Origin: an uncultured Collinsella sp.
GTDB lineage: Bacteria > Actinomycetota > Coriobacteriia > Coriobacteriales > Coriobacteriaceae
DNA: 64,000 nucleotides
Direction: 5' to 3'
Assembly (NCBI GenBank): GCA_900547125.1
Contig: URFU01000001.1
Span: forward strand, 7,731 to 71,730
The notes under the pieces are model-generated. The model was not told the origin of the DNA, searched no databases, and was given only the letters and a program-made list of their open reading frames with translations. Shown one piece after another: positions 15,927 to 31,700 of the stretch; within the stretch, counting starts at the first letter, position 1, and each line of letters starts with the position of its first letter. The position numbers and the translations under genes were made by a program.

Positions 15927-15975
15927 CCGGGGGCGGCACGTCACACGGCGCGCCGCCCCCGGTCTTTTTGTTTTT
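15927..15975 (+). terminator. Rho-independent terminator after lacG1.
   Basis: ccgggggcggc…gccgcccccgg followed by tctttttgttttt. Confidence 0.65.
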
Positions 15976-15990
15976 GGGCTGGTCGGGAGC

Positions 15991-16140
15991 CGTTTGTCTC
16001 GATCTGTAACATCTAGCCGAGTTTTTTGGTCCTAGCTGTTACAGATTGAGACGAACAGGATTGCTCTTTCCGAAGAATCTAAATCTGTAACACGTAGCCC
16101 GCTTTTGACCGTCTACCTGTTACAAATCGAGACAAACGGA
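15991..16140. repeat. Palindromic hairpin element family A, two tandem units (A-loop and B-loop types).
   Basis: Unit 1 is cgtttgtctcgatctgtaaca[tctagccgagttttttggtcctagc]tgttacagattgagacgaacag. Unit 2 is aatctgtaaca[cgtagcccgcttttgaccgtctacc]tgttacaaatcgagacaaacg. Confidence 0.85.
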
Positions 16141-16147
16141 GTAGGAC

Positions 16148-17176
16148 CTAACCCCGTATGTCCCTAACAGTCGAGCGTTCGACCAGCGTACTCGGCACAT
16201 GAATCGCCTCGATAGACGAGCTCTCTCCAATCGCCGCCTCAAACGCAAGCTTACCGACACCGCGCAAATCAAATCGCAGCGTCGTCAGCCGATTGTGAGG
16301 AACAAGTCCCTCGAGTGCGTCGTCGATACCAACCACGCTCACGTCGTCGGGCACGGACAGGCCCGCGTTCTCGAGCGCGGCGATAACACCCAGCGCCATC
16401 TGGTCATTTGCCGCAAGCACGGCAGTCGGCGCCTGCGACCCGCCGGCAAGCACCTCGGCCGCAATCCGCTCGCCCATGGCGTACCCACTGTCCGCACTCC
16501 AATCGCCACGCAGCATCGGAGCGGCATCGACATGAGCACGACCCAGCGTATCGCGCCAACCGGCCTCACGAAAACGCGAGGAAATCGAGTTTTCCGGACC
16601 CGCCACAAACCGCATATTCGAGTGGCCATGTTCCAGCAGATAATTGGTCAACAGCTCGCACGAACCATACTGGTCGGAGTCGATCGTCGTGCAGCGCGGA
16701 TGCGCATACATGGACAGGATGACCGTTCGCACTCCCGGCTGGGGAACAAACTCCTCAAAATCGGGAGCCATGCGGTTCATGTTGAGAATCATGCCGTCGA
16801 CGGGTCGCTCGACCATGCGGCGCGAGGCATCGGCAAGTGCATAGGGCTTGTCGCCGCCCATCTCGATCATAGTGACGGCAAAATCGTGCTCGCGCGCCGC
16901 TTGCATGATACCCTCGAGCGTCGCCAGGTTACCGACACGTGTGATGTTGTACATGCACAGGCCAATAGAACGATACGACCCGCCGCGCAACGCCGTTCCA
17001 GCAAAATTGGGACGAAAGCCCAGCTCTTCCATGGCGGCCAGCACACGCTTGCGCGTCTTTTCCGTCACGTTGGGCATACCGTTGACCACGCGAGACACAG
17101 TCTGGCGGCTCACGCCAGCGAGCGCCGCAACCTCTGCCGCGCTCGCCGAACGACCATTCCTTGTCTGCTGAGCCAT
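16148..17176 (-). CDS. LacI-family repressor, module 2.
   Basis: HTH AAEVAALAGVSRQTVSRVVNG. Probable start at MAQQTRNG (cat 17174-17176, GGAAGG RBS). The ORF track extends to 17233. Confidence 0.8.
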   Translation of the reverse strand: MAQQTRNGRSASAAEVAALAGVSRQTVSRVVNGMPNVTEKTRKRVLAAMEELGFRPNFAGTALRGGSYRSIGLCMYNITRVGNLATLEGIMQAAREHDFAVTMIEMGGDKPYALADASRRMVERPVDGMILNMNRMAPDFEEFVPQPGVRTVILSMYAHPRCTTIDSDQYGSCELLTNYLLEHGHSNMRFVAGPENSISSRFREAGWRDTLGRAHVDAAPMLRGDWSADSGYAMGERIAAEVLAGGSQAPTAVLAANDQMALGVIAALENAGLSVPDDVSVVGIDDALEGLVPHNRLTTLRFDLRGVGKLAFEAAIGESSSIEAIHVPSTLVERSTVRDIRG

Positions 17177-17235
17177 GCCTTCCACGCCAACCTGCTTCCC
17201 AACTATTCCCCGCGCCCATGGCGCATCGTACATAC

Positions 17236-17410
17236 ATTGATAACGTGCTCATGATACCCGAGCCATATACCACAACATGAAAACTTCTGTCAATCAAAAC
17301 CGCTTACCGAACAAATACAACCGTTCGCGGCTGTTTGAAGTTGTTTTGTTTCTATACATCCCAGCCGGATGTTAACGTGCTCATTGTCAAATGTTCACGT
17401 GCTCATTTTG
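17236..17410. promoter_or_regulatory. Three TGTTAACGTGCTCAT-type operator candidates.
   Basis: tgataacgtgctcatga (17240), gatgttaacgtgctcattg (17368) and aaatgttcacgtgctcatt (17389). Confidence 0.5.
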
Positions 17411-17520
17411 GTTCTAATCATTTTAAGATAGTGTTTATCGGGCTTTTTCACCGCTAAACGCTAACCAGGGAGCCTCCTGAGCGCAAACGCACAATATCGA
17501 ACAGCGAGACGAGAGGGTGT

Positions 17521-18969
17521 ATGCATATGTCTTTGCTAAACCGCGTACAGCAGCTGCCGAAGGGCTTTGTTTGGGGCGCCGCAACCGCCGCGTACCAAAC
17601 GGAAGGTTCCACGAAGGTGGCAGGCAAGGGTAAGACCATGTGGGACGATTACCTTGTCGCCCAGGGTCGCTTTTTGCCCGACCCGGCCAGTGATTTCTAC
17701 AACCGCTACGAGGAGGATATCCGCCTATCAGCCGAGCATGGACTCAACGCCATCCGTGTGTCCATCGCCTGGACCCGCATCTTCCCTAACGGCGACGATG
17801 CCGCGCCCCTCGCCGAGGGCGTTAAGCACTACCACGAGTTGTTCGCCTGCTGCAAAAAGTATGGCGTCGAGCCCTATGTGTCCCTGCATCACTTTGACTC
17901 CCCCGCCGCCCTGTTCAACCAGGGCGACTGGCTCAACCGCAAGACCGTCGACGCCTATGTGCGCTATGCCGAGTTCTGCTTCCGTGAGTTCCGCGAGGTC
18001 AAGAATTGGTTCACCATCAACGAGCTCATCAGCCTCTCGCACTCCCAATACATCCAAGGCAACTTCCCGCCCAACCATCACTTTGATGTGACGAGCGGCA
18101 TCCAGAGCCAGCACAACGAGCTCGTTGCCCACGCCCGCGCCGTCAACCTGTATAAGGATCTGGACGAGACCGAGCACCTGGGCGGCCGCATTGGCATGGT
18201 CAACGTCCTGACGCCGGCATATCCTGCCACCGACTCGCCCGCCGACCAGCACGCCGCCGACCTGTACAACGCCTTCTACACCGACTTCATCATGGACGGC
18301 GCCTTCCTGGGTCACTACTCCGCGCACACCCTCTCACTCATCAACGAGATTCTGCGCGCCAACAACGCCACACTTACGGTTGAGGACGGCGACATGGAGG
18401 AGCTCGCCAAGGCGGCGCCCCGCAACGATATGTTCGGCCTCAACTACTATCAGTCGGCGTTTATCGCCGCCTACGATGGCGAGTCCACCAACAGCTTTAA
18501 CGGCACCGGTGACAAGGGCACCTCGTGCTTTAAGTTTAAGGGCGTCGGGCAGCAGGTCGATATGCCGGGTATCCCCACCACCGACTGGGATTGGCTCATC
18601 TACCCGCAAGGCCTCTACGACACGCTCAAGCACATCAGCGCCACCTATCCCAACCTCCCCGTCATCTATATCACCGAAAACGGCCTGGGCCACAAGGACC
18701 CCGAGCCCGACGCAAACGGCATCGTCGCCGATCCCGAGCGCATCGACTTTGTCGACCAGCACATGGAGAAGGTGCTCCAGGCGCGCGCCGAGGGCGTCGA
18801 CGTCCAGGGCTACTTTATCTGGAGCCTGCAGGACCAGTTCTCGTGGGCCAATGGCTATAACAAGCGCTACGGCCTGTTCTACATCGACTTCGACACGCAA
18901 AAACGCTACATCAAGCAGTCGGCACTCTGGTACAAGGAGCTCGCCGACACTATGGCGGACGCGCAGTAG
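17521..18969 (+). CDS. GH1 6-phospho-beta-galactosidase/glucosidase, module 2.
   Basis: GH1 motifs FVWGAATAAYQTEG, SLHHFDSP, YITENG and SWANGY. Alternative start at 17527. Confidence 0.85.
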   Translation: MHMSLLNRVQQLPKGFVWGAATAAYQTEGSTKVAGKGKTMWDDYLVAQGRFLPDPASDFYNRYEEDIRLSAEHGLNAIRVSIAWTRIFPNGDDAAPLAEGVKHYHELFACCKKYGVEPYVSLHHFDSPAALFNQGDWLNRKTVDAYVRYAEFCFREFREVKNWFTINELISLSHSQYIQGNFPPNHHFDVTSGIQSQHNELVAHARAVNLYKDLDETEHLGGRIGMVNVLTPAYPATDSPADQHAADLYNAFYTDFIMDGAFLGHYSAHTLSLINEILRANNATLTVEDGDMEELAKAAPRNDMFGLNYYQSAFIAAYDGESTNSFNGTGDKGTSCFKFKGVGQQVDMPGIPTTDWDWLIYPQGLYDTLKHISATYPNLPVIYITENGLGHKDPEPDANGIVADPERIDFVDQHMEKVLQARAEGVDVQGYFIWSLQDQFSWANGYNKRYGLFYIDFDTQKRYIKQSALWYKELADTMADAQ

Positions 18970-18983
18970 CGCATCGCCTCGCT

Positions 18984-19040
18984 TTCCCCCGAGAGGGGAG
19001 CGGCCCTATGCGATACAAACCCAGCCGCTCCCCTCTCTCT
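18984..19040 (+). other. Intercistronic inverted repeat between bgl2 and IICB2.
   Basis: cccgagaggggagcggc … gccgctcccctctctctggg. Confidence 0.4.
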
Positions 19041-19141
19041 GGGACCGACCCCGCCTGCACCCGGGCTTTTAGCAAGCGGGAGACCATATAGGTTTTCAAC
19101 GTCCATGCCATTAAGATTTCATGCAAAGAGGAGCGTGAACT

Positions 19142-20902
19142 ATGGAATCGATCGTTAAGTTCTTGGAGAAAGGTCAGCCGTACTTCGACAAGGTCTCTAA
19201 GAACATCTACCTTCAGGCCATTAAAGACGGCTTTTTGGCAGCAATGCCCATCATCCTGTCTTCTTCTGTCTTCCTGCTTATTTCGACCCTGCCGGGCGTT
19301 GTCGCCACGGTCGGCGGCTTTACGCTGCCCGACTGGTGGAACGTCGACGTCGTGAACTTCTGCAACAAGGTTTACAACTTCACGATGGGCGTCGTGGGCA
19401 TCATGGTCGCCGGCACCACCGCAAGCGCGCTGACCGGCTCCAAGAACCGCCGCATGCCTGCCGGCAAGGCCATCAACGCCACGAGCACCATGGTCGCCGC
19501 CATGTGCGCTATGCTCATCTTGGCCGTTACCCAGACGAGTGCCAAGATCGACGGCGCCGATGTCTCGGTGTTCTTTACCGACAACATGGGCACCAAGGGC
19601 CTGCTGAGCTCCTTTGTCGCCGCATTTGCCACGGTCAACATCTATGCCTTCTGCATTAAGCGCGACATCACCATCAAGCTGCCCAAAGAAGTCCCCGGCG
19701 CCATCGCCCAGAACTTCCGCGACATCTTCGCCTTCAGCTTCTCCATCCTGTTTGTCGCCGTCATCGACGTTATCTGCCGCACCTGCTTGGCCGTCCCGTT
19801 TGCCAACGTCATCTCCACGCTGGTGAGCCCGCTGTTCGCCGCCGCCGATTCCTACGCCGGCCTCGCCCTCATCTGGTTCATGATCCCGCTGTTCTGGTTC
19901 ATGGGCATCCACGGCCCCTCGGTCGTTAAGCCTGCCCTCAACGCTGCGCTGTTTGGCAACATCACCACCAACCTCGCCACGCTGCAGGCCGGCGGTCACC
20001 CCGCCCTCGCCCTGACCGAGAACTTCGGTAACTACATCGGCGAACTCGGCGGCACCGGCGCCACGTTCATTGTCCCGATCATTTTCCTGCTCTTTATGCG
20101 CTCCAAGCAGCTCAAGGCCGTCGGCAAAGCCTCTGTCGTACCCGTGATGTTCGCCGTCAACGAGCCGCTGCTGTTCGCCGCGCCCATCATCCTCAACCCG
20201 TACTTCCTGATCCCGTTCCTGTTTGCCCCCGTGGCCAACGTCCTCATTGGTAAGTTCTTCATCGACTTTTTGGGCATGAACGGCTTTATCTATGCCATGC
20301 CGTGGGCACTCCCCGGACCGATCGGCACCTTCATCGACACCAACTTCCAGCCGATTTCTCTGGTCCTGGTTGTCGTCCTGCTGGTCGTTGACTTCTTGAT
20401 CTACTACCCGTTCTGCAAGGCCTACGACAACGTCCTGTGCAAGCAGGAGGCCGAGACCCTGGCCGAAGAAGAGGCCGAGGAGACCAAGGCCGTCAAGACC
20501 GCTGCCGCCCCCGCCGTTGAGGCTCCCGTTGTCGAGACCGCTTCTGCCACTGAGGCCTCCGCAGCTCCGTCCGCCCTTAAGGGCAAGGATCTGAGGGTTC
20601 TGGTTCTGTGCGCTGGCGCCGGCACCTCTGCACTGCTCGCCAACGCGCTTAAGGAAGGCGCCGACGAGCTGGGCATCGACATTACCGCCAACGCCGGTGC
20701 CTACGGCAGCCACTACGCCATCATGGACCAGTACAACGTCATCGTCCTGGCTCCGCAGGTTCGCACCTATTACAACGAGATGAAGGCCGACACCGACCGC
20801 CTGGGCATCACGCTGCTGTCGCCCAAGGGCAAACAGTACATCGACCTCACTAAGGATCCCAAGGGTGCCGTCGCCTGGATCGAGGAAAACCTCGAGGCAT
20901 AA
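19142..20902 (+). CDS. PTS lactose-family IICB, module 2.
   Basis: Paralog of 12599..14374 (MESIVKFLEKGQPYFDKVSKNIYLQAIKDGF…) with a C-terminal IIB domain (RVLVLCAGAGTSALLA). RBS AGGAG. Confidence 0.9.
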   Translation: MESIVKFLEKGQPYFDKVSKNIYLQAIKDGFLAAMPIILSSSVFLLISTLPGVVATVGGFTLPDWWNVDVVNFCNKVYNFTMGVVGIMVAGTTASALTGSKNRRMPAGKAINATSTMVAAMCAMLILAVTQTSAKIDGADVSVFFTDNMGTKGLLSSFVAAFATVNIYAFCIKRDITIKLPKEVPGAIAQNFRDIFAFSFSILFVAVIDVICRTCLAVPFANVISTLVSPLFAAADSYAGLALIWFMIPLFWFMGIHGPSVVKPALNAALFGNITTNLATLQAGGHPALALTENFGNYIGELGGTGATFIVPIIFLLFMRSKQLKAVGKASVVPVMFAVNEPLLFAAPIILNPYFLIPFLFAPVANVLIGKFFIDFLGMNGFIYAMPWALPGPIGTFIDTNFQPISLVLVVVLLVVDFLIYYPFCKAYDNVLCKQEAETLAEEEAEETKAVKTAAAPAVEAPVVETASATEASAAPSALKGKDLRVLVLCAGAGTSALLANALKEGADELGIDITANAGAYGSHYAIMDQYNVIVLAPQVRTYYNEMKADTDRLGITLLSPKGKQYIDLTKDPKGAVAWIEENLEA

Positions 20903-20937
20903 TACGCTGACGCCACCTGCCGCTCGCAGAAAATAAT

Positions 20938-20978
20938 GGCCCGCGCATCGATGTGTGATGCGCGGGCCATTTTGTTTA
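20938..20978 (+). terminator. Rho-independent terminator after IICB2.
   Basis: ggcccgcgcatc gatgtgt gatgcgcgggcc followed by attttgttt. Confidence 0.65.
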
Positions 20979-20993
20979 GACCGCACCCGTCCT

Positions 20994-21064
20994 CCTGTTC
21001 ATCTCAATCTGTAACATCTAGCCGAGTTTTCGGGTCCCACCTGTTACAGATTGAGATGAACAGG
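20994..21064. repeat. Palindromic hairpin element family A, single unit.
   Basis: cctgttcatctcaatctgtaaca[tctagccgagttttcgggtcccacc]tgttacagattgagatgaacagg. The arms are perfect over 23 bp. Confidence 0.85.
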
Positions 21065-21074
21065 CCGAGCACGT

Positions 21075-22076
21075 CTACACCCGCAGGTCCTTTACGCTGG
21101 AACGCTCGACCAACACACCCGAGACAAGCGTACGGCTTCTGGAGCTCGGGGCTTCCAGACCTGCGACGACCTCGTTAAGCGCACGGATGCCCAGCTCGCG
21201 GTGGCGAAACTTCACCGACGTCAGAATCGAGTTGGGAATCGTCTTGTAGAGCTCATCGTCGAAGCCGATCACGGACACGTCGTCGGGCACACTCAGACCC
21301 TTGTCACGTAGAGCCATCATCACGCCGTTTGCCATGCAGTCGTTAGCAGCGAGGACCGCCGTACAATCGGGTTTATCGGCAAGCACAAGGCCCGCGGCAT
21401 AGCCACTATCCGCATTCCAATCGCCTTGCAGAGGCTCGGGCGGCTCAATGCCACGCGCCTCGAGTGCCGCACGCCAACCTTTCATACGACACTGGCTCGA
21501 CAGCGACTCTTTCTTACCAGAGACGAAGTATACGTTCTTGTGCCCACGATTTAAGAAGTACTCGCACGCCATGCGCGCACCACCCTCTTGATCGTCACTA
21601 ACGGTAGAGCAGGTAGGATGCTCCATCGGCGTGATAATCACCGTCTTGAGGCCCTTCGGTGCCTCAAAGGTATCAAAGTCATCGACCATCTGACGCAGGT
21701 TGAAGATCATGCCATCAACAGGCAGTTGCGACATCCTACGCGCCGCTTCGGCAAGGGTCATCTTCTCCCCCGCGCGCTTCTTAATCATCGTAAGCGCAAA
21801 ACCGCGTTCTTCGGCGGCATCGGCGATACCGTCAATCATGTCCACGGCACCGCCCGACAAGTGGAACAGCACCACGCCGATGCACCCGTAACGACCCAAT
21901 TTGAGCGAACGCGCGGCAAAGTTGGTTCGAAACCCGAGCGCCTCCATTGCGGAATGAACCTTATCGCGTGTCGACTCTCGCACGCTATCGGGCTCGTTGA
22001 TCACACGCGAAACCGTCTTGAGAGAAACACCCGCAGCAATCGCCACGTCGTTCATTGAGACATTTTTCTTGTCCAT
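21075..22076 (-). CDS. LacI-family repressor, module 3.
   Basis: HTH MNDVAIAAGVSLKTVSRVINE. Likely start at MDKKNVS (cat 22074-22076). The ORF track extends to 22154. Confidence 0.8.
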   Translation of the reverse strand: MDKKNVSMNDVAIAAGVSLKTVSRVINEPDSVRESTRDKVHSAMEALGFRTNFAARSLKLGRYGCIGVVLFHLSGGAVDMIDGIADAAEERGFALTMIKKRAGEKMTLAEAARRMSQLPVDGMIFNLRQMVDDFDTFEAPKGLKTVIITPMEHPTCSTVSDDQEGGARMACEYFLNRGHKNVYFVSGKKESLSSQCRMKGWRAALEARGIEPPEPLQGDWNADSGYAAGLVLADKPDCTAVLAANDCMANGVMMALRDKGLSVPDDVSVIGFDDELYKTIPNSILTSVKFRHRELGIRALNEVVAGLEAPSSRSRTLVSGVLVERSSVKDLRV

Positions 22077-22215
22077 CGTTGCCACTACTTCTCCAGTCGG
22101 TTTTGCATCGCTTGCTTTTTGCGTTCTAGCATACACTACCTGCCCGACTGACAAATCAGCCGTTTATCGGACGATATCGACCGTTCACCTGTAAATCCTT
22201 GTTGCTCTTCCAAAA

Positions 22216-22262
22216 ATGTCTTACGTTGTCATTAACGAAATGACAACGTTGTCATTTCGCAA
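22216..22262. promoter_or_regulatory. Perfect palindromic operator TGACAACGTTGTCA plus a flanking half-site.
   Basis: tgacaacgttgtca at 22241-22254, and ttacgttgtca at 22221-22231. Confidence 0.6.
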
Positions 22263-22360
22263 TGCCTTCCTTAATCAGGAAGGTTTCCGGGCAGTCCTGA
22301 CCATCCATCGACGACCAGTTCCATCCACATGCATCGCGCATCAAGTAGCAAAGGAGCTTT

Positions 22361-24139
22361 ATGGACGCCATCGTAAAGATGCTCGAAAAGCATCAGCCGT
22401 TCTTTGAGAAGATCTCGAGGAACATCTACCTCCAGGCTATTAAGGACGGATTCCTTGGGTGCATGCCCATCGTCCTCACCTCTTCGATCTTTCTGCTGAT
22501 CGCCACGCTTCCCGGCGTGGTCGGCATCACGCTGCCCCAGCCGCTCATCGACTGGTGCAACAAGCTGTACAACTTCACCATGGGCGTCATGGGCATCATG
22601 GTTGCCGGCACCACCGCCAAGAACTTTACGGCTTCCATGAACCGTCGCATGCCCGCCGGCAAGGTGCTCAACGACGGCTCCACCATGGTTGCCGCCCAGT
22701 GCAGCATGCTGCTGCTCGCCGTTACGCAGTTCACCACCAAGTTCAACGGCTCCGAGCTTTCTGTCTTCGATTGCACCAGCATGGGTACGCGCGGTCTGTT
22801 CTCGGCCTATATCGCCGCGTTCATTACCGTGTGGGTCTATAAGTACTGCGTCTCGCGCGATCTGACCATTAAGCTGCCCAAGGAGGTTCCGGGCGCCATC
22901 GCACAGAACTTCCGCGACATCATCCCCTTCGGTGGCGCTGTCATCATTTGCGGCATCATCGATGTGGTTGTGCGCAACCTCATGGGCGTTCCGTTCTCCG
23001 AGCTGCTTATCAAACTGCTCTCCCCGCTCTTCACTGCGGCAGAGACCTACCCCGGACTCATCCTTATTCAGGCGGCCACCGCGTTCTTCTGGTTCATCGG
23101 CGTCCACGGCCCCTCGATTGTCCAGCCGGGCATCGACCCCATCCGTCTTGCCAACCAGGCCGAGAACCTGCAGGTTCTGCTGGCAGGCGGCCACCCCGCA
23201 CACTCCCTCACCTTTAACATGTCGCTCGTGGGTGAGTTCGGCGGCACCGGCGCCACGTTCATCGTGCCGCTTCTGCTGATTCTCTTTATGAAGTCCAAGC
23301 AGCTCAAAGCCGTCGGTAAGGCCTCGATTGTTCCTGTTGCCTTCGCCGTCAACGAACCGCTGCTCTTTGGCGCGCCGATGATCCTTAACCCTTACATGCT
23401 CATCCCCTTTGTTGCCGCCGGCTGCGTCAACGTAAGCGTTGCCAAGTTCTTTATCGACAATGTGGGCATGAACGGCTTCTCCTTCGTGGTGCCTTGGGCC
23501 ACCCCTGCCCCCATCGGCATCTTCATCACCACGAACTTCCAGCTTATCGCCCTGGTATTTGTTGCAATCATCATCTTGCTGGACGCCATCATCTACCTGC
23601 CGTTCTTGAAGGCATACGATAAGCTGCTCTGCGACCAGGAGGCCGAGCGCGCCGCCGAGCTGGGTCTCGAGTCCGATGGTGCCGCTGCCATCGCCGCCAA
23701 CGCCCCTGCGCCCGCTGTCGAGCAGACCACCGCTTCCGTCGAGACGACCGCTGCCGCCGCCGGCAGCGAGCCTGTCGCCGATCAGCCCGAGCCCGCTGCC
23801 GATGCATCCGCCAAGAAGGATGTCGACGGCCTGAAGGTCCTCGTCCTGTGCGCCGGCGCCGGCACCTCTGCCATGCTTGCCAATGCCATCAAGGAAGGTG
23901 CCGCGCAGACCGGAGAGAACATCGCTTCCTCCGCAGGCGCCTATGGCCAGCACACTGCCATCATGGATCAGTACGATGTCATCGTGCTCGCCCCGCAGGT
24001 TCGTAGCTACTACAACGACATGAAGGCCGACACCGATCGTCTGGGCATTAAGCTGCTCGCTCCGCGCGGCAAGGAATATATCGACCTTACTCGCGACCCC
24101 GCTGGCGCCATCAAGTGGCTCCGCGAGAACCTCGACTAG
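22361..24139 (+). CDS. PTS lactose-family IICB, module 3.
   Basis: MDAIVKMLEKHQPFFEKISRNIYLQAIKDGF…, C-terminal IIB (LKVLVLCAGAGTSAMLA). RBS AAGGAG. Confidence 0.9.
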   Translation: MDAIVKMLEKHQPFFEKISRNIYLQAIKDGFLGCMPIVLTSSIFLLIATLPGVVGITLPQPLIDWCNKLYNFTMGVMGIMVAGTTAKNFTASMNRRMPAGKVLNDGSTMVAAQCSMLLLAVTQFTTKFNGSELSVFDCTSMGTRGLFSAYIAAFITVWVYKYCVSRDLTIKLPKEVPGAIAQNFRDIIPFGGAVIICGIIDVVVRNLMGVPFSELLIKLLSPLFTAAETYPGLILIQAATAFFWFIGVHGPSIVQPGIDPIRLANQAENLQVLLAGGHPAHSLTFNMSLVGEFGGTGATFIVPLLLILFMKSKQLKAVGKASIVPVAFAVNEPLLFGAPMILNPYMLIPFVAAGCVNVSVAKFFIDNVGMNGFSFVVPWATPAPIGIFITTNFQLIALVFVAIIILLDAIIYLPFLKAYDKLLCDQEAERAAELGLESDGAAAIAANAPAPAVEQTTASVETTAAAAGSEPVADQPEPAADASAKKDVDGLKVLVLCAGAGTSAMLANAIKEGAAQTGENIASSAGAYGQHTAIMDQYDVIVLAPQVRSYYNDMKADTDRLGIKLLAPRGKEYIDLTRDPAGAIKWLRENLD

Positions 24140-24214
24140 TTCCTCCCTCTGTTGGTGCCCGGATCCCCAGTTCGGGCACCTCTCCCTATTCGTATCCCAC
24201 AGAAAGGATGACTC

Positions 24215-25636
24215 ATGACCAACCCCATGCAGTTCCCCGACGGCTTTGTGTTTGGCGGCGCCACCGCCGCTTACCAGGTTGAGGGCGAGACCCGCACGCA
24301 CGGCAAGGGCAAAGTGCCCTGGGACGATTTCCTGGCTGCTCAGGGTCGCTTCTCCCCCGACCCCGCAAGCGATTTCTACAACAAGTATCCGGTCGATATC
24401 GACTTGTGCCAGCGCTTTGGCATCAACGGTATTCGCGTCTCCATCGCTTGGAGCCGTATCTTCCCCAGTGGCACCGGCGAGATTAACCCCGAGGGCGTCG
24501 CTTTCTATCACGAGCTTTTCGCCACCTGCAACAAAGCTGGCGTTATCCCCTATGTCACGCTCGATCACTTTGACACGCCCGAGGCCTTCTACCAGGACGG
24601 CGGCGAGGGCTTCCTGACGCGCACGACCATCGACGCCTTCGTCGAGTACGCCAAGTTCTGCTTTGCCGAGTTCACCGAGGTCAAGCACTGGTTTACCTTT
24701 AACGAGATTCCCGCAACCGCCGAGGGCAGCTTTATCGTCGGCAACTGGCCGCACGGCGAGAAGTACCGCCTGGACAAGGCCTTCCAGCTCATGCACAACA
24801 TGATGGTGGCCCACGCCAAGGCTGTCGTCGCCTTCCATGAGGGCGGCTTTGAGGGCGAGATCGGCATTGTCCAGAACCTGGAGCCCAAGTATCCCCTCGA
24901 CCCCAACAACGCCGCCGACTGCGAGGCAGCTCGCATGGCCGACGTCATCAACAACCGCTGGGTACTCGACGCCACCTTCCGCGGCCACTATGCAGCCGAC
25001 ACCATGGAGGCTGCGACCAAGCTGGCCCATATCGCCGGCGGCGAGCTCGACGTCCGCGACGAGGACATCGCCGCGCTGACCGCCGCGCTCCCCTACAACG
25101 ATTGCCTGGGCGTCAACACCTACAAGTGCCAGTTCCTGCGTGCCGCCGAGGGCGAAAACGACATCAACCACAATGGCACCGGCGACAAGGGCTCCTCGCG
25201 CTGGTTCCTCAAGGGCGTGGGCGAGTCATGCGTGCGCGAAGGCGTACCCACCACCGATTGGGACTGGATCATCTATCCCGAGGGCCTCTACGACCTGCTG
25301 CTCCGCATTAAGAACGATTACCCCAACTACAAGAAGATCTACATCACCGAGAACGGCATGGGCTATAAGGACGACTTCGAGGATGGCTTTATCGACGACG
25401 CCCCTCGCATCGACTACATGCGTCAGCATCTCGCATGGATCCTCAAGGCAATCGACGGCGGCGTAAACGTCGACGGTTACTTTGTGTGGTCGCTGCAGGA
25501 CCAGTTCTCCTGGACCAACGGCTATAACAAGCGTTACGGCCTGTTCTACATCGACTTTGAGACCCAGAAGCGCTACCCCAAGGCGAGCGCGTACTGGTAC
25601 AAGAACGTCGCGGAGACCGGCCTGCTTATGGCCTAA
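24215..25636 (+). CDS. GH1 6-phospho-beta-galactosidase, module 3.
   Basis: Very close to lacG1: FVFGGATAAYQVEGETRTHGKGKV, YITENGMGYKDD, SWTNGYNKRYGLFYIDFETQKRYPK. Confidence 0.85.
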   Translation: MTNPMQFPDGFVFGGATAAYQVEGETRTHGKGKVPWDDFLAAQGRFSPDPASDFYNKYPVDIDLCQRFGINGIRVSIAWSRIFPSGTGEINPEGVAFYHELFATCNKAGVIPYVTLDHFDTPEAFYQDGGEGFLTRTTIDAFVEYAKFCFAEFTEVKHWFTFNEIPATAEGSFIVGNWPHGEKYRLDKAFQLMHNMMVAHAKAVVAFHEGGFEGEIGIVQNLEPKYPLDPNNAADCEAARMADVINNRWVLDATFRGHYAADTMEAATKLAHIAGGELDVRDEDIAALTAALPYNDCLGVNTYKCQFLRAAEGENDINHNGTGDKGSSRWFLKGVGESCVREGVPTTDWDWIIYPEGLYDLLLRIKNDYPNYKKIYITENGMGYKDDFEDGFIDDAPRIDYMRQHLAWILKAIDGGVNVDGYFVWSLQDQFSWTNGYNKRYGLFYIDFETQKRYPKASAYWYKNVAETGLLMA

Positions 25637-25658
25637 CTTTTGCCGCATACCCCCTGTC

Positions 25659-25708
25659 GGCCGCATGCGAATCCCTCCACGGGTTCGTATGCGGCCTTTT
25701 TTGTTTTT
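25659..25708 (+). terminator. Rho-independent terminator after bgl3.
   Basis: ggccgcatgcgaa…ttcgtatgcggcc followed by ttttttgttttt. Confidence 0.65.
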
Positions 25709-25725
25709 GGTGAGCCCGTGCGGGC

Positions 25726-25870
25726 CGTTTGTCTCGATCTGTAACATCTAGCCAAGTATTTCGGCCCTAGCTGTTACAGATCAAGACAAACAGAGCGCCC
25801 GAGCAGAAATATCTCAATCTGTAACACGTAGCCCACTTTTAACCGTCTACCTGTTACAGATCAAGACAAT
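25726..25870. repeat. Palindromic hairpin element family A, two tandem units.
   Basis: ccgtttgtctcgatctgtaaca[tctagccaagtatttcggccctagc]tgttacagatcaagacaaacag, then atctcaatctgtaaca[cgtagcccacttttaaccgtctacc]tgttacagatcaagacaat. Confidence 0.85.
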
Positions 25871-25921
25871 AAGATAGTCAAATCCAAACTTTCCAAGCAG
25901 TTATGAAGCATGGTTTCTAGT

Positions 25922-25996
25922 TTTCGGTATCACGAACATGCTTTCGGTGTCATTTAATGGTATTATGATATCGAAAGTATGTTCGTGATACCGAAA
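25922..25996. promoter_or_regulatory. Dyad-symmetric promoter/operator of the Fic gene.
   Basis: 18-bp perfect inverted repeat tttcggtatcacgaacat / atgttcgtgataccgaaa. It brackets a nested imperfect inverted repeat and a TATTAT(GAT) -10-like box. GAAAGGAG RBS follows. Confidence 0.55.
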
Positions 25997-26004
25997 GGAG
26001 CCGC

Positions 26005-27237
26005 ATGCGCCAGTTCGATTACACCACAGTCCCAGCGGAACTCGAGGCAACTCCAATCACCAACCTCCTCCTCTCGATACGCGAGCATAAAGGCCGACAG
26101 CTTGCTCTGAGTCAAGTTAAACCCGAACTTCTATCGTCACTTATGGAGGAAGCTAAGATCCAAAGCACCCAATCCTCCAACGGACTTGAAGGAATTGTTA
26201 CCACCCAAAAAAGACTCAAAGCAATCATGGCGTATTCCGCCAAGCCAAGCTCCCGCGCAGAGGAAGAAATCGCTGGATACCGAGATGTGCTGTCGCTTAT
26301 TCACGAGCAACACGATTCCATTCCCGTAACGCCATCGGTCATTTTGCAGTTGCATCGTGACCTCATGGCGCACACGGCAATCTCGTATGGGGGCCATTGG
26401 AAAGATAGCGATAACGAAATCATCTCCATCGACAATCAAGGCAATCGATTTGTGCGCTTTAGGCCGCCTTCGGCCCTAGCAACCCCCGGACTTATCGAAG
26501 AAGCCTGTCGGTCCCTCAACGACGCCTTATCTCGTCAAGTTTGCGACCCCCTCCTTATATCATTCCGCTTCATCTTCGATTTTGTCAGCATTCATCCCTT
26601 CAACGATGGCAATGGCAGGATGAGCCGGCTCCTTACAACGCTGCTACTCGAAAAGACTGGATACGACGTTGCGCGTTACATCAGCATCGAACGACTTATT
26701 GAAGACAACAAGGCGCTCTACTACAACGCCCTCGCTGCAAGCTCCACTGGATGGAATGAAAATCAAAACACCGAAGTACCCTTTATCCGTTTCATGCTCG
26801 GAACAACCCTGGCCGCCTACCGACAGCTCGAGCAGCGTACCTTAATTGAATCAAGCACTCGTCCCATGTCGAAGCAAGCGCGCATCGCTGTTCTATTTCA
26901 ACAGAGACCCGGCGTCATTAAGAAATCCGACATCCGATCCAACTGCCCCGATATCAGCGAGGTTACCGTTAAACGAACCCTCGGTCAGCTTGTTAGTTGC
27001 AGCGCAATCGAAAAAACAGGAGCGGGTCGTTCGACGGGCTACATACTCAAAGACGTCCATGCTCTAGAACTATTCTTGCAATCCACAATACCCGATAGCG
27101 AGGCCGCAATAACAAAAGAGGCTCCAAAGGATAAGCTCCTTGAACGTGTAAACCACGCCGAGGATGAAAGCAGAGAGGGGCTCTATGAAGACTACGATTC
27201 ATTCTCAAGGGACATAAAGACGAAATACGGAGTCTAG
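26005..27237 (+). CDS. Fic-family protein (class II, with N-terminal inhibitory helix), putative AMPylase, with a C-terminal winged-helix-like domain.
   Basis: Fic motif HPFNDGNGRMSRLL. Upstream inhibitory motif S-x-x-x-E-G (SSNGLEGI). GC is visibly lower than in neighbouring genes. Confidence 0.85.
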   Translation: MRQFDYTTVPAELEATPITNLLLSIREHKGRQLALSQVKPELLSSLMEEAKIQSTQSSNGLEGIVTTQKRLKAIMAYSAKPSSRAEEEIAGYRDVLSLIHEQHDSIPVTPSVILQLHRDLMAHTAISYGGHWKDSDNEIISIDNQGNRFVRFRPPSALATPGLIEEACRSLNDALSRQVCDPLLISFRFIFDFVSIHPFNDGNGRMSRLLTTLLLEKTGYDVARYISIERLIEDNKALYYNALAASSTGWNENQNTEVPFIRFMLGTTLAAYRQLEQRTLIESSTRPMSKQARIAVLFQQRPGVIKKSDIRSNCPDISEVTVKRTLGQLVSCSAIEKTGAGRSTGYILKDVHALELFLQSTIPDSEAAITKEAPKDKLLERVNHAEDESREGLYEDYDSFSRDIKTKYGV

Positions 27238-27278
27238 TCATATCCCAGAATAGCCTCATCCTTGTTGCCCAAAGTTAT

Positions 27279-27686
27279 TTACGCGTCATTGTGAAGCGAT
27301 AACCCCTGCGCCGGCAGGGGGGGGCAGAAGTATCGCCTGCCGATCTTGCTGGAGTCGGCGATGAGGTAGCGCGTATCGGCCTTGCTAAAGGCGAGCTGCT
27401 GGATGCGGCCCTCGTCCATATTGGACGTAGATACGTCACCGTCCAAGATGCCGTTGGCACCGATAAACGCCGCGTCAATGCCCAGCGCACGCAGGGTATC
27501 CTCGGCCGTGGGTCCCACAAAGGCGGCGGTGCGGCGACGGTACATGCCGCCTACCAGGCACAGGTCGCAGTCTTCGCGCGTCTCGAGCAGGTTAATCACC
27601 GAGAGCGAATTGGTCACATAGATGGAAGTCAGCTTGTCGGTGACTCGGAGAGAGCGCCAATGCGATCTCACGTCGGTTGCGCTCAT
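27279..27686 (-). pseudogene. Truncated duplicate of the DeoR-family regulator 31818..32609 (C-terminal sugar-binding domain only; no HTH).
   Basis: Protein VTNSLSVINLLETREDCDLCLVGGMYRRRTAAFVGPTAEDTLRALGIDAAFIGANGILDGDVSTSNMDEGRIQQLAFSKADTRYLIADSSKIG is nearly identical to the 31818 regulator. By eye, ~90% nucleotide identity over ~270 bp (27361-27625 vs 31951-32215). Confidence 0.7.
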
Positions 27687-27781
27687 TGTCTCAACTTGAT
27701 ACTCAACGAAATACGGCCCCGCAGCTCAATAAGCTGCGGGGCCCTACTATACACCGACGAATCAACGACGGAGTGCATCCA

Positions 27782-29476
27782 CTATTTGGCCAGCTCCTGA
27801 ACGATCCAGTCAATTGCGCCTTCGGGATCGTTGGTAAGGTCGATATACTCCTTGCCCCTTGTGGTGAGCAGTTTAATTCCAAGGCGATCGGTATCGGCCT
27901 TCATAGCGTCATAGTACATGCGTGCCTGGGGTGCCAGAACAATCACGTTGTACTGATCCATCGTCTCATAGTGGCTTCCGTACGCACCGGACTGAGAAAC
28001 CAGATCGATACCCTTAGCAGCGGCACCTTCGCGAAGAGCATTTGCCAAGAGAGTCGAAGTGCCAGCACCCTGGCAAAGCACAAGCACGCGGATCTGCTCC
28101 GCCTTGTCCTTTACCGCCTCGAGAGCTTTTGCGACATTTTCCTGTGCGGCAATAGCATCTGCATCCGAGGTTCCTGCAGTCTCCTTTGCAGACTCTTCCA
28201 AACAAAGCTGATGGTCATACGCCTTGCAGAACGGATAGTAAATCACAAAGTCAACGACCAACAGCACTGCCATCAATACGAGAGAACGCAGATCGAGACC
28301 CGTGGTGAGGAATGCACCGATTGGGCCGGGAAGCGCCCACGGCATGGTATACATGGGGGCGTTCATTCCAATGACGTCAATGAAAAATTTACCGATAATG
28401 GCGTTGACCATAGGAGCCACTAGGAAGGGCACGAACATATAGGGATTGAGAACAATCGGCATACCGAAGATAACGGGCTCGTTAACTCCAAAAATCACCG
28501 GGATAATCGATGCCTTGCCCATGGCTTTAAGCTGCTTGGAGCGCATAAACATGATCAGGATAATAGGAACGATGAACGTGCAGCCAGAACCGCCCAGACC
28601 GCCGATGAAGCTTGTAAAGTCCTGCGTGAGAGCAATTGACGGGTGTCCACCTGCTTGGAAAACCTCAAGATTGGTAACGGTATTGCCGTAGAGCGCAGCA
28701 TTGATCGGACTCATGACAACCGAAGCACCGTGGATACCCATAAATTGGAAAAGCGCGACCGCGCCTTCGATAAGCGCCATGCCAGGATAGGTATCGACCG
28801 CGGAGAACAGCGGCGAGATGAGAGCGGATACCAAATTGGCGAACGGCACAGCAAGCAGCTTGCGGCTCGCAAGATCGATAAAAGCGCACGCAAGGATCGA
28901 AAACCCAAATGCAAAGATATCGCGAAAACTCTGCGCAATAGAGCCAGGGACCTCTTTGGGAAGCTTGATCGTCACATTATGGCTAATGCACACCTTATAG
29001 ATATTAACGGTCAAGAATGCGGCTACGAACGCAGCGAGAAAACCCTTGGTTCCCATATAGCCGGTTTCAAAAACAGATGTATCTGCTCCGACAATCGAGA
29101 CAACATCGTTCGTCACCGATAGCAAGAGCATGCCGCACATGGCACAAACCATGCACGAGGTGGGGTTGAGAGATTTACCCGAAGGCATGCGACGGTTCAT
29201 CGACATGGCAAGTGAGCTCGCCGTGGTGCCGGCCACCATAATGCCAAGAAGTCCCATGGTATATGCATAGATTTTATTGAAGAAATCCAGCACCTCAGAC
29301 GGAAGCGTGATGCCTACATAGGCAGGGAGCGTCGAAAGAAGAAGGAACAGGCTCGAGAACAGCACAATTGGCATATTCGAGAGAAAGCCATCCTTAATCG
29401 CCACCAGATAAATGTTCCTCGAGATTTTGTCGAAGAGGGGCTGGTGTTTTTCAAGGAATTTGACGATAGCGTCCAT
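27782..29476 (-). CDS. PTS lactose-family IICB, fourth and more divergent paralog.
   Basis: MDAIVKFLEKHQPLFDKISRNIYLVAIKDGF…, C-terminal IIB (RVLVLCQGAGTSTLLA). Start at cat 29474-29476 with an AAAGGA RBS. Lower GC than modules 1-3. Confidence 0.85.
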   Translation of the reverse strand: MDAIVKFLEKHQPLFDKISRNIYLVAIKDGFLSNMPIVLFSSLFLLLSTLPAYVGITLPSEVLDFFNKIYAYTMGLLGIMVAGTTASSLAMSMNRRMPSGKSLNPTSCMVCAMCGMLLLSVTNDVVSIVGADTSVFETGYMGTKGFLAAFVAAFLTVNIYKVCISHNVTIKLPKEVPGSIAQSFRDIFAFGFSILACAFIDLASRKLLAVPFANLVSALISPLFSAVDTYPGMALIEGAVALFQFMGIHGASVVMSPINAALYGNTVTNLEVFQAGGHPSIALTQDFTSFIGGLGGSGCTFIVPIILIMFMRSKQLKAMGKASIIPVIFGVNEPVIFGMPIVLNPYMFVPFLVAPMVNAIIGKFFIDVIGMNAPMYTMPWALPGPIGAFLTTGLDLRSLVLMAVLLVVDFVIYYPFCKAYDHQLCLEESAKETAGTSDADAIAAQENVAKALEAVKDKAEQIRVLVLCQGAGTSTLLANALREGAAAKGIDLVSQSGAYGSHYETMDQYNVIVLAPQARMYYDAMKADTDRLGIKLLTTRGKEYIDLTNDPEGAIDWIVQELAK

Positions 29477-29655
29477 AACACATCCTTTCATGATTCCCGG
29501 GCACACAACGATTTATCCGGACTCAACCGTCGTCGTCCCCGTTTGTATCCACTTATGTAAGTGAATACGTTCTTGTGCGAAATGTAATATCATTTGCGCG
29601 ATTTGTCATAACCAATTCTTTTTCCGCTTTGTCGATATGTCAAGAATTCAAATAC

Positions 29656-29752
29656 TTATTCGGTGAACGGTAGTTGATTAATATAATGTTTTCCCAGCTA
29701 AAGGCTATTTTTTCCGAGCAATACAATAAGCTTGCAACCGTTCACCGATTGG
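29656..29752. promoter_or_regulatory. Inverted pair of the GGTGAACGGTAGTT motif in the divergent promoter region.
   Basis: cggtgaacggtagtt at 29661-29675 and aaccgttcaccg at 29736-29747. The region is AT-rich. Confidence 0.55.
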
Positions 29753-29832
29753 ATATAACATATTGAATATATTGTTGTAACAATATTAGAGACAATGTCA
29801 CAAGCCTGTCGTTCTAGTCAAAGGAAGTAACA

Positions 29833-30753
29833 ATGCCCAAACGATTACTGAACATGTCCGCATCCGATTTTGCCGCCACGTCATCCATGGATCTAAAACA
29901 GGCAATTCTGGCTTCCGAGGGACGTACCATCATGGCGGAAAACGTACCCTCTTCCCAATTTCTCGGCGGCGTTACTAATGCAGAAATCGAACGTGCCGCA
30001 GGTGCCGACCTGCTTCTGTTTAACGCGCTCGATGTGTTCGATCCAGTTATTGCCGGTATTCCAGATGATCTCAATGAAAACCCGGTCACTTGGGTGAAGC
30101 GAGCATGCGGAAGGCCCATTGGCGTCAATCTGGAGCCAGTTGATAACGAGGCAGAGATGTCTGAATCCCGAACGGAAATCCCCATGGGTCGTCGCGTCTC
30201 TCCCAAGACCTTAGAAAAGGCTAACGAACTCGGATTTGATTTTATCTGCCTGACGGGCAACCCTGGAACCGGCGTCTCCAACGATGCAATCGCCCATTCG
30301 ATTAAACTCTCCAAAGAGCATTTCAATGGCCTGGTCATAGCCGGAAAAATGCATGGAGCGGGCGTTGCGGAACCTGTCATGACGCTCGAAATTGCGCGCA
30401 AGTTTGTTGACCTCGGCGTCGATATCCTTCTCGTGCCAGCCCCCTACACCGTCCCTTGCTTCCAAGAAGCAGACCTGCGCGCCATCGTAGACTTTGTACG
30501 ATCCCACAACGTAGGCAAGTCAATTGAAGAGAAGGTTCTCGTCATGGCGGCGAACGGGACGAGTCAAGACTCCTGCGACAGCGAGACCATTAAGAAAATA
30601 GGCCTTGCAGCAAAAGCAGCCGGCGCTGACCTCCAACATATCGGGGACTCCATGAACGGTATTTGCCTGCCCCAGAATATCTTCACGCTCGGACAAGCCC
30701 TTCGTGGATACAGGCATCAGATCGTCATGCTGAGCCGCTCTGTGATACGTTAA
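29833..30753 (+). CDS. Hypothetical protein, possibly a TIM-barrel sugar-phosphate enzyme. No confident family assignment.
   Basis: 306-aa ORF with good coding periodicity. Gly-rich phosphate-binding-like loops (LTGNPGTGVS, IAGKMHGAG). Sits divergent from IICB4 and upstream of a GntR regulator. Confidence 0.5.
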   Translation: MPKRLLNMSASDFAATSSMDLKQAILASEGRTIMAENVPSSQFLGGVTNAEIERAAGADLLLFNALDVFDPVIAGIPDDLNENPVTWVKRACGRPIGVNLEPVDNEAEMSESRTEIPMGRRVSPKTLEKANELGFDFICLTGNPGTGVSNDAIAHSIKLSKEHFNGLVIAGKMHGAGVAEPVMTLEIARKFVDLGVDILLVPAPYTVPCFQEADLRAIVDFVRSHNVGKSIEEKVLVMAANGTSQDSCDSETIKKIGLAAKAAGADLQHIGDSMNGICLPQNIFTLGQALRGYRHQIVMLSRSVIR

Positions 30754-30807
30754 GGTTACCTTGCCCACGTTACATCCCGACTGAGGCAACCATCAGGTAT
30801 AACCAAC

Positions 30808-31545
30808 ATGCAAACTGAGGCTCTAATGCTCGATACACACGAAAAACGGCCACTCTATTTACAGCTCACCGACGCGCTGCTCAAGCAGATCGTCGATGAA
30901 TATCAAGCAGACGATAAACTTCCAACAGAAATGGAACTCTGCGACGAATACGCCGTAAGCAGAACAACCGTCCGACTTGCCATGAGTGAGCTGGAGCGTC
31001 GTGGAAGTATCTATCGAATCCAAGGTAAGGGGTCGTTTGTTGCACCGAAACGCGTTAGCGAGCTCAATTCACTTTTAGACTTTGACTTTGCAAGCCATTG
31101 CGATGGCGTTGATCCAGATGCCATTACCAAACATTTCGGCGGCCTCACATCAGGTCGTCCAATTTCCGTAATGATGCTCCAACAATTTGGATGTCAAAGT
31201 CGCGACAAAATTCAGCGTCTTGAATTGACCTACGAACTTGAAGGCAGCTTCATAGGCGCTGATACGTTCTTCATTTCAAAGTCGCGCGTTCCAAATAACC
31301 AGTTAGATTTTCAGGCATTTAGCAGAATCATGGACGACTTGTCCAAGTCTATCCAATCTGTTAGGGAAAGCTATAGAGCACGTCAGCTTAGCGATTCCGA
31401 AGCCAGTAATTATGGTGTTGCAAAACTTCCGGTCATCGAACTGACTCATTATGCTTACGACTCCGGAGGCAAACTAATCTCAATTGTCTGCCGCACCGTC
31501 TTAACTGGGCGAATCCCTTATCAAAACTTTATTTTCAAGTCCTAA
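30808..31545 (+). CDS. GntR/HutC-family transcriptional regulator (UTRA effector domain).
   Basis: N-terminal winged [43 protein letters not shown]. Possible start at 30826. Confidence 0.8.
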
Positions 31546-31556
31546 TGTTCTTTTTC

Positions 31557-31700
31557 TTTTGTCTCGATCTGTAACACGTAGCCGAGTTTTTAAGTCCTAA
31601 CCGTTACAGATCGAGACAAACAAGGTAGGCCCCGCCGAATTGTCTCAATCTGTAACATCTGGTTGGTGGTTTCACCCCTACCTGTTACAGGTTGAGACGA
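31557..31700. repeat. Palindromic hairpin element family A, two tandem units.
   Basis: ttttgtctcgatctgtaaca[cgtagccgagtttttaagtcctaacc]gttacagatcgagacaaac, then ttgtctcaatctgtaaca[tctggttggtggtttcacccctacc]tgttacaggttgagacga. Confidence 0.85.

Follow-up and report, generated by a model that had tools for sequence, protein, structure and literature searches.

Dispersed palindromic repeats of bacterial genomes have been described in several forms. Repetitive extragenic palindromic (REP) sequences are imperfect palindromes of 20-40 nt with a GTAG/CTAC at the 5' end, are present in hundreds of copies, and are combined, with linker motifs from a small named set, into bacterial interspersed mosaic elements (BIMEs), which bind gyrase, integration host factor and DNA polymerase I. 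In the attC sites of integrons, the R'' (RYYYAAC) and R' (GTTRRRY) boxes are outermost, and sopC of plasmid F is a centromere-like region of tandem 43-bp repeats, each with an inverted repeat. Here we analyse a family of palindromic repeats with conserved arms and a variable core that is represented by seven units in a 64,000-nt stretch of DNA (hereafter, the window) from an uncultured Collinsella sp. (assembly GCA_900547125.1, contig URFU01000001.1, positions 7,731 to 71,730). To judge from sequence comparisons, we incline, with moderate confidence, to regard these repeats, found so far only in Collinsella, as a REP/BIME-like, putatively protein-recognised DNA element that would also act as a recombination junction.

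Direct reading of the window located the seven units at four loci (arrays 1 to 4), all intergenic, just where a preliminary description made from the letters of the sequence had placed them. Each unit consists of RTCTCRATCTGTAACA, a 25-nt core and the inverted arm, and the 16-nt consensus of the left arm is GTCTCGATCTGTAACA. Array 1 is formed by unit 1 (15996-16052; left arm 15996-16011, core 16012-16036, right arm 16037-16052) and unit 2 (16077-16133), which starts 81 bp after the start of unit 1; array 2 by the solitary unit 3 (21001-21057), whose palindrome reaches 23 nt per arm (20995-21063); array 3 by unit 4 (25731-25787), a paralogue of unit 1, and unit 5 (25811-25867), a paralogue of unit 2; and array 4 by unit 6 (31561-31617), located 12-16 nt past the stop codon of a GntR gene with no terminator in between, and unit 7 (31642-31698), whose core is dissimilar to those of the other six. 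The repeat units are real, beyond chance. A search for GTCTCGATCTGTAACA with up to three mismatches rendered 14 matches in the window, as compared to 0.23 expected from shuffled sequences, and all 14 are arms of the seven units; a stricter hairpin pattern rendered four matches versus none expected; and a repeat search recovered the identical seven copies, with start-to-start spacings of 81, 4924, 4730, 80, 5750 and 81.

Some features initially ascribed to the units had to be amended. The loops had been described as 25-28 nt long, but all seven units have a core of exactly 25 nt. The arms had been described as near-perfect, which holds for five of the units, whereas units 2 and 5 have several arm mismatches, with a degenerate outer arm in unit 2 (ATCTAAATCTG / CAAATCGAGAC). 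Folding as single-stranded DNA is predicted at -18 to -28 kcal/mol for five units (z -6.8 to -10), including unit 1 (-18.3 kcal/mol) and unit 3 (-27.6 kcal/mol), and is poor for units 2 (-6.4 kcal/mol, z -1.0) and 5 (-9.0 kcal/mol). Two loop classes, also noted at first, are indeed present in the window, but they reflect local paralogy, since units 1, 3 and 4 and units 2 and 5 sit in duplicated cassettes encoding a LacI-family regulator, a phosphotransferase system (PTS) permease and a glycoside hydrolase of family 1 (GH1); over the family as a whole, cores are hypervariable, 403 of them comprising 334 distinct sequences.

When one genome per species was scanned for the exact pattern, at least 120 genome stretches with a unit were obtained. 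Apart from unlabelled bins and a single bin titled Acutalibacteraceae, all of them bear Collinsella titles, and the loci of the scan contain 427 units. The 147 arrays, clustered by their flanking DNA, fall into 25 ortholog groups (Chao1 estimate, 29), so that at least 25 loci are conserved across more than 100 Collinsella assemblies, with 1 to 8 units per array (mean 2.6). In a 0.9-Mb record of C. aerofaciens TSDC17.2-1.1, BLAST with a two-unit query found 15 places, one of them 100% identical to array 1; the first 50 kb of that record has no units. The record, named 'plasmid 6' (NZ_OY725717.1, 899,693 bp), carries recA, ftsK, lexA, scpAB and rny, and it is therefore mislabelled chromosomal DNA. 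A genome thus has some 25-40 conserved intergenic sites with about 80-100 units, which are vertically inherited. Among the arrays with a gene call on both sides, 114 of 123 lie between calls and nine overlap a call, several of these nine at seemingly over-extended ORF starts. The element is not confined to one locus, many other genomic copies being present, and the idea of a dispersed repeat family, as opposed to a set of plain terminators, is borne out by the many conserved Collinsella loci. No description of the family was found in the accessible literature on Collinsella repeats or palindromes, and it is apparently undescribed so far. A catalogue of structured-RNA candidates published in 2021 (PMC8040213, supplementary file 1) lists HMP2_10134, a 50-nt candidate present only in Collinsella beside many unrelated genes, which may correspond to this family or to a second palindromic family that is dealt with below; the arm sequence was not found in supplementary files of that catalogue.

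The geometry of the family is rigid. Taking the Collinsella loci and the window together, 372 of 376 units have a core of 25 nt and the remaining four one of 26 nt, and the tandem period is 80 bp in 139 and 81 bp in 96 of the 243 pairs of units that are less than 100 bp apart. Of the 404-405 arms per side, 395 are paired, about ten being solo or degenerate. The arms alternate in orientation, with an inner spacer of 25 bp and an outer spacer of 23-24 bp, so that successive half-sites are 41 and 39-40 bp apart. The recognition sequence of the arm, 16-19 bp long, can be written as wwtRTCTCRATCTGTAACA, and the position-frequency matrix reads wwt-R-TCTC-R-ATCTGTAACA followed by the core and the inverted arm, the core itself reading nn-TAG, five to six free G+C-rich positions, a T-tract, five to six free positions and CTA-nn. 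The TCT at positions -4 to -2 and the AGA at positions 48 to 50 are 97-100% conserved although they lie outside the search pattern, and the conservation of the arms is therefore not an ascertainment artefact.

Mismatch rates were taken from 550 pairs of orthologous units between genomes. They are 0-5% in the arms, except for the transition-prone positions 0/46 (24%) and -1/47 and -5/51 (ca. 14%), 0.5-3% at three central A/T positions of the core, 8-17% in the rest of the core, and 20-28% in the linker, so that linkers evolve about five times faster than the arms and the central A/T tract. Because the pairs were picked by the likeness of their variable parts, the rates for core and linker are underestimated and the contrast is a conservative one. 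These rates indicate strong purifying selection on the arms and the central A/T tract, whereas core and linker are free in sequence and constrained in length. With selection on the arms and free cores, this pattern points to sequence-specific recognition by a protein, as was suggested from the window at the outset. The conservation of the arms, the rigid spacers of 25 and 23-24 bp, and an A/T tract kept amid G+C-rich free positions would all fit a protein that measures distance and reads both arms at the DNA level. The arms would then be half-sites read sequence-specifically on DNA, most simply double-stranded DNA, and, with the fixed spacing, one half-site would be about four helical turns from its neighbour. 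In this respect the arrays may be likened to sopC, which also has tandem units of fixed length and an inverted-repeat protein-binding site roughly four helical turns from the next. However, the Collinsella arrays occupy some 30 chromosomal loci and not one site by a partition operon, no genes of the ParA/ParB type are adjacent to them, and the arm sequences are unrelated. A LacI operator, considered on account of the TGTAAC half-sites beside LacI genes, was discarded, most arrays being nowhere near LacI genes.

It could also be the case that the palindrome is maintained for its folding. At the variable position pair 0/46, the combinations G:C, A:T, A:C and G:T were found 100, 81, 81 and 78 times, a Watson-Crick fraction of 0.53 versus 0.50 expected; at -5/51 the fraction is 0.50 versus 0.53 expected, polymorphic positions being independent between arms, and core positions adjoining the arms pair less than expected. 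In 107 non-orthologous units (orthologues thinned out) no covariation was detected, 79.8% of cells being paired as compared to 81.4% in shuffles, with 500 of 500 shuffles at or above the observed value and a covariation score of 0.113 versus 0.131 in shuffles. Since arm positions assort independently and do not covary, the palindrome appears to result from two conserved copies of a sequence and not from pairing that is kept. No positive evidence is left for a selected hairpin, although the folded state is not disproved. Variable arm positions paired no better than in shuffled controls, and the nested mini-stem that the preliminary description had seen in the loop was not upheld, given that TAG and CTA at the core ends are conserved but pair no more than base composition predicts.

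These results bear on an element acting in the transcript, be it an mRNA-stabilising 3'-UTR hairpin, a terminator lacking a U-tract or a multicopy small RNA. Such a role would agree with the window, where the four arrays all come after plus-strand genes and arrays 1 and 2 lie in the path of convergent LacI transcripts, and long stems could block exonucleases. However, the units have no T-run, and canonical terminators stand apart from them at arrays 1 to 3. That of the GH1 gene 14441-15880 (plus strand) is a GC-rich hairpin with a T-run at 15927-15975, just upstream of array 1, which was read directly because its loop of more than 8 nt escapes the terminator scan; a bidirectional terminator-like hairpin, scored on both strands by the scan, lies at 20935-20981 between the PTS EIICB gene 19142-20902 and array 2; and the scan found the terminator of the GH1 gene 24215-25636 at 25659-25706 (plus strand), upstream of array 3. 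The placement of every array after a plus-strand gene and its canonical terminator, as first described, thus applies to arrays 1 to 3, there being no terminator before array 4. Gene contexts across the family were assigned with a GC3-based caller that matches the deposited calls of the window except for the low-G+C GntR gene. Arrays were found in 36 convergent, 37 divergent and 41 tandem contexts, background intergenic regions numbering 109, 123 and 352, respectively. About a third of the arrays are hence in divergent promoter regions (gltB/gpmA, GntR/prfC and glpA among them), one, at the SGNH/thiD locus, lies between two convergent terminators, and other array neighbours include tuf, glmS, thiD, a DEAD-box helicase gene and a glycogen phosphorylase gene. 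Placement 3' of sugar genes, as was noted in the window, is accordingly a local effect of the triplicated LacI/PTS/GH1 cassette, family-wide contexts being mixed, with housekeeping neighbours.

Moreover, the asymmetric core, with its T-run or A-run, is randomly oriented between tandem neighbours (108 same, 107 opposite), and the rigid length of the linker would be needless for an RNA hairpin. The units match no family of Rfam 15, which includes the Collinsella-1 motif: only a raiA motif and a tRNA pass the gathering score in the window, and at E <=10 nothing but generic miRNA hairpins matches the units, with 20-27 bits as compared to gathering scores of 70-142. Lacking a U-tract and being frequent in divergent regions, the units are unlike intrinsic terminators, and the small structured RNA that had been put forward as an alternative does not fit the random orientation, the missing covariation, the arrays in divergent gaps or the Rfam result. 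A transcript-level role as the common denominator of the family is unlikely; we infer that the repeat element is not an RNA, and of the explanations weighed here we give one acting in the transcript the least credence.

Among described systems, the family resembles the REP sequences and BIMEs of Enterobacteria and the REPINs of Pseudomonas in being composed of short extragenic palindromes limited to one lineage, with positions conserved between strains, conserved arms and variable spacers. The BIME architecture is present as well: inverted copies alternate with spacers of fixed length and are clustered in arrays. On the other hand, no stem is found within the 16-19-nt arm, TAG and CTA belong to the spacer and are not 5' of a stem, the number of units per genome is well short of the hundreds of copies of REP sequences, spacers are hypervariable, and arrays are equally frequent in divergent promoter regions and at 3' ends. 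Nor has a REP-associated tyrosine transposase (RAYT) been found near the sampled array loci. As the half-site is no hairpin, GTAG is misplaced, copy number is low and no RAYT was found, the family fits best as REP/BIME-like in architecture and genomic behaviour, but not as a member of the RAYT-associated REP family.

A REP or REPIN system in the strict sense would have arms that fold as a single-stranded DNA hairpin and are recognised and copied by a domesticated HUH tyrosine transposase (the RAYT) or a similar enzyme, with which the conserved arms would have co-evolved. Obligate pairing of inverted arms, the stable DNA hairpins predicted for five of the seven units of the window, extragenic location and BIME-like clustering into arrays would all be expected of such a system, as would past copying, for which shared core ancestry at unrelated loci speaks: cores at non-orthologous loci with an identity of at least 20/25 make up 0.38% of pairs, as compared to 0.013% in a column-shuffle null, and one shared core, TCTRGGnCCGATTTTGCCGAGTWAC, recurs in six ortholog groups. 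Non-orthologous cores, although for the most part unrelated, thus share sub-motifs above the null, which suggests old copying between loci. A second family of like design is also found in the same genomes. In it, exactly 29 nt of core separate GTTGCGGTGRAATASGGAC from the inverted arm, the arms being of 18 nt; three copies are in the window (10544-10608, 60803-60867 and 61941-62005), and the 17 copies in the sampled Collinsella loci all have the 29-nt core and are solitary, not tandem. One of these (locus L132, 7534-7598) shows matching changes in both arms, unlike the main family.

The evidence against a strict REP or REPIN system starts with the enzyme. A tblastn search with an approximate IS608 TnpA probe, a weak test, gave no Y1 transposase signal in the window or in 1.17 Mb around arrays, and no transposase-like gene flanks the arrays at 24 of the 25 array-locus groups, namely those with a representative having both neighbours. 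The specific RAYT link proposed at first thus found no backing, since no Y1 transposase lies beside the sampled array loci, in a test limited to the surroundings of arrays. The half-site that is not itself a hairpin, the GTAG missing 5' of the stem, the modest number of units at conserved positions, the poor folding of units 2 and 5 and the want of compensatory changes all point the same way, and we consider a strict REPIN system unlikely, though less so than the other alternatives to a protein-recognised DNA element. Regarding a partner, a hypothetical protein of 358-374 aa has arrays on both sides of its gene in nine of nine genomes (L085, 232-1323, minus strand; L041, L048, L070, L083, L101, L105, L117 and L132). 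It gives only sub-threshold DUF559 and AbiEi_4 signals, and its family, with 4665 representatives at E <=0.001, is not Collinsella-specific; from its position only, it is a candidate nuclease or DNA-binding partner.

Miniature inverted-repeat transposable elements (MITEs) such as Correia/NEMIS, RUP and BOX share with the family the terminal inverted repeats, the non-coding core, the intergenic dispersal and the past copying between loci. The units might be tiny MITE relics, their arms being terminal inverted repeats once bound by the transposase of a now rare or lost insertion sequence (IS), and arrays could have arisen by insertion beside resident copies and tandem duplication. The free interior, the core sub-motifs common to several loci and a few units truncated by unrelated DNA, which could be later insertions, are in keeping with such an origin. 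However, no target-site duplication of 5 bp or more was found at offsets of 0-12 bp around 62-63 arrays, and in the sampled loci no arm pair brackets a transposase-sized segment, the arms being nearly always 25 nt apart; as the sample was chosen by the hairpin pattern, an IS located elsewhere would have escaped. The unit is also smaller (57-63 bp), the tandem period is rigid, and the arms are conserved in place at orthologous sites far beyond the linkers, unlike decaying relics. MITE relics are accordingly an improbable explanation. The truncated units (L090, 7738; L097, 7726; L110, 2058) are cut after the left arm or within the core; other elements may have inserted into them, as is the case with REP-targeting IS elements. 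For the protein-recognised DNA element that we prefer, the family would have spread between loci long ago, in a REP- or MITE-like manner, and would now be essentially sedentary.

A phage-borne origin was also considered and rejected. The phage database rendered no match to the repeat; six matches on viral contigs, traced in full, are host DNA beside prophages; and the 11 true viral-contig matches have a high G+C content, the low-G+C viral matches, with other core lengths and incomplete arms, being due to chance. In L003, L008, L011, L014 and L017, the 3' end of thiD is occupied by Collinsella prophages that encode a tyrosine integrase of 375 or 386 aa, the empty site being seen in L068 (4330-4700). 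Their core sequence is near CTTAATACTGCCACA, 75 nt beyond an array of two or three units, which excludes a prophage attB inside the array.

The number of units in an array changes as whole units are gained or lost. Around a 364-aa ORF with arrays on either side, nine genomes have 2-5 units upstream and 1-4 downstream, traceable by cores and linkers; the differences are losses of whole units and, in L041, the duplication of one linker plus unit. Likewise, the orthologous site of array 2, which has a single unit in the window, has 2-4 units in other strains. Arrays are also located at the borders of segments that some strains possess and others lack. In the window, positions 11237-25636 comprise three tandem paralogous cassettes with 65-80% DNA identity, each with a LacI-family regulator (minus strand), a lactose/cellobiose PTS EIICB and a GH1 6-phospho-beta-glycosidase (both plus strand), and arrays 1 to 4 separate these three cassettes and an island of lower G+C content. 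Cassette B (16141-21000; LacI 16148-17233, minus strand; GH1 17521-18969 and PTS EIICB 19142-20902, plus strand) has arrays 1 and 2 at its edges. This 4.9-kb segment is absent from L069 and L139, where 260-289 bp separate the outer flanks of arrays 1 and 2 and the empty site is a single array of three units that match units of these two arrays. Island D (25870-31557; SoFic-like Fic protein, DeoR fragment, PTS EIICB, DUF7916 and GntR), with arrays 3 and 4 at its edges, is absent from L050, where a three-unit array and, further on, the same DeoR gene are separated by 0.8 kb of other DNA. In C. aerofaciens TSDC17.2-1.1 (NZ_OY725717.1, 731401-771555) it is replaced, after array 3, by a 9.3-kb defence island with an ABC-three-component (ABC-3C) system, DUF2326, a type II restriction-modification pair and Phd/RelE. 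These three haplotypes diverge exactly at the right-arm end of unit 5. An AAA-ATPase gene lies between two two-unit arrays in L072 and L064 and is missing from L077, L099 and L107, which keep one array; the duplication flanking it, of about 270 bp, extends beyond the array to a terminator and 75 bp of the neighbouring gene. A similar array-bounded difference is seen between L038 and L116, and, in total, the sample has about eight array-bounded segments, four of which are polymorphic between strains. A global enrichment of breakpoints at arrays (36%, as compared to 4.4% of the sequence) was not used because it is confounded by intergenic divergence and changes in unit number, nor was an intergenic control of it, which is confounded by paralogues and the 8-kb sampling blocks.

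Repeated arms and paralogous units could make arrays preferred recombination junctions, at which recombination would insert, delete or swap neighbouring blocks such as sugar PTS cassettes and defence genes. Such a role may simply follow from repeated homology, or the arrays may be dedicated to it. In the latter direction, a site-specific recombinase acting on the arms might excise and integrate the blocks between arrays, in the manner of attC or pdif. Present or absent array-bounded segments in four cases, a single array at the empty site, a boundary of island D exactly at the right-arm end in three haplotypes, and typical accessory cargo (PTS sugar modules, SoFic, ABC-3C, restriction-modification, toxin-antitoxin, AAA ATPase) would be expected of such an exchange. 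However, the junctions are not at one fixed arm position, the duplication reaching past the array in the ATPase case is typical of homologous recombination, and most arrays flank stable housekeeping genes. Moreover, no recombinase is found among the genes flanking the array loci, the window not having been systematically screened for tyrosine recombinases. Dedicated exchange of the attC or pdif kind is thus very unlikely. A bolder proposal, to which we likewise concede only a small chance, is that the arrays are the landing pads of a new chromosomal cassette-exchange system of an actinobacterial gut commensal, in which a trans-acting protein would read the phased palindromic arms and multi-gene blocks, such as PTS modules and SoFic, ABC-3C and restriction-modification genes, would be inserted, excised or swapped at arrays. 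If true, it would be a functional analogue of integron attC or pdif modules, mechanistically unrelated to them.

The likeness to attC itself comprises imperfect palindromes of about 60 bp, AAC...GTT in the arms and a location between strain-variable blocks that include defence genes. However, compared by eye with the consensus, CTGTAAC and GTTACAG each miss the R boxes at two positions, which agrees with the preliminary view that the units do not fit the attC consensus well; AAC and GTT are at the inner arm end, with 9-12 conserved bp further out; the sequence is conserved, and not just a structure, without covariation; and the units are in tandem, about 24 bp apart. Unlike integron cassettes, the blocks are multi-gene, with their own regulators, and span 1-9 kb, most arrays flank stable core genes, and intI is not among the genes flanking array loci. 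The regular alternation of conserved and variable segments is also reminiscent of CRISPR, from which the family was correctly set apart at the start, the conserved segments being inverted and the neighbours not being cas genes. In Collinsella the conserved segments alternate in orientation, the variable ones contain a fixed TAG, T-tract and CTA and are strain-conserved at each locus, and arrays of 1-8 units are found at about 30 loci with no adjacent cas genes.

Several points weigh against a protein-recognised DNA element that doubles as a junction. What looks like purifying selection on the arms could be concerted evolution, by gene conversion between units. With 13 of the 16 arm positions nearly invariant and most units folding anyway, the lack of covariation is weak evidence against a hairpin, and inverted arms with a 25-nt gap would equally suit a protein that binds a single-stranded hairpin or a cruciform. 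The phasing of half-sites is deduced from the spacing only. The number of units at a locus is free, which makes a dosage-sensitive function unlikely. The junction role rests on four resolved cases, of which that of the ATPase gene looks like homologous, Campbell-type recombination and not like an array-specific event.

Collinsella is a common genus of the human gut whose strains differ greatly in carbohydrate-use and defence genes, and a genus-wide repeat, conserved by selection and located at the edges of variable blocks, would provide a handle on how this strain diversity arises. The variable number of units at fixed loci is a ready marker for strain typing, and the 16-19-bp arm could be used as DNA bait for the putative DNA-binding protein, in a phylum that has been little studied. 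For motif searches, the lesson is that a family of perfect-looking hairpins may be a DNA sequence motif without evidence of selected pairing.

As for the remaining features of the window, whose G+C content is about 59%, the middle cassette differs in gene order, and upstream of the three cassettes there are a lacAB/tagatose-pathway cluster and a PTS IIA gene. A human-gut metagenome scaffold (ENA ERZ28656870) encodes the GH1 protein of 14441-15880 in the same gene order. The first gene of island D encodes a Fic-domain protein of 410 aa (26005-27237, plus strand) that matches the SoFic anti-phage model of PADLOC (E 3e-35). Just upstream of it, at 25922-25996, there is a long inverted repeat (TTTCGGTATCACGAACATGCTTTCGG ...), unrelated to the repeat family, which might be an operator or a terminator. 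A 298-bp direct repeat with 93% identity (27321-27618 and 31917-32214) brackets about 4.3 kb that include the PTS EIICB, DUF7916 and GntR genes and array 4; its first copy is a C-terminal DeoR fragment (27279-27686, minus strand) and the second is inside the intact DeoR gene 31818-32609, a pattern expected after insertion by a single crossover. Finally, the raiA RNA motif is present at full length at 54498-54758 (minus strand; Rfam RF03072), with 149.5 bits as compared to a gathering score of 101.3.

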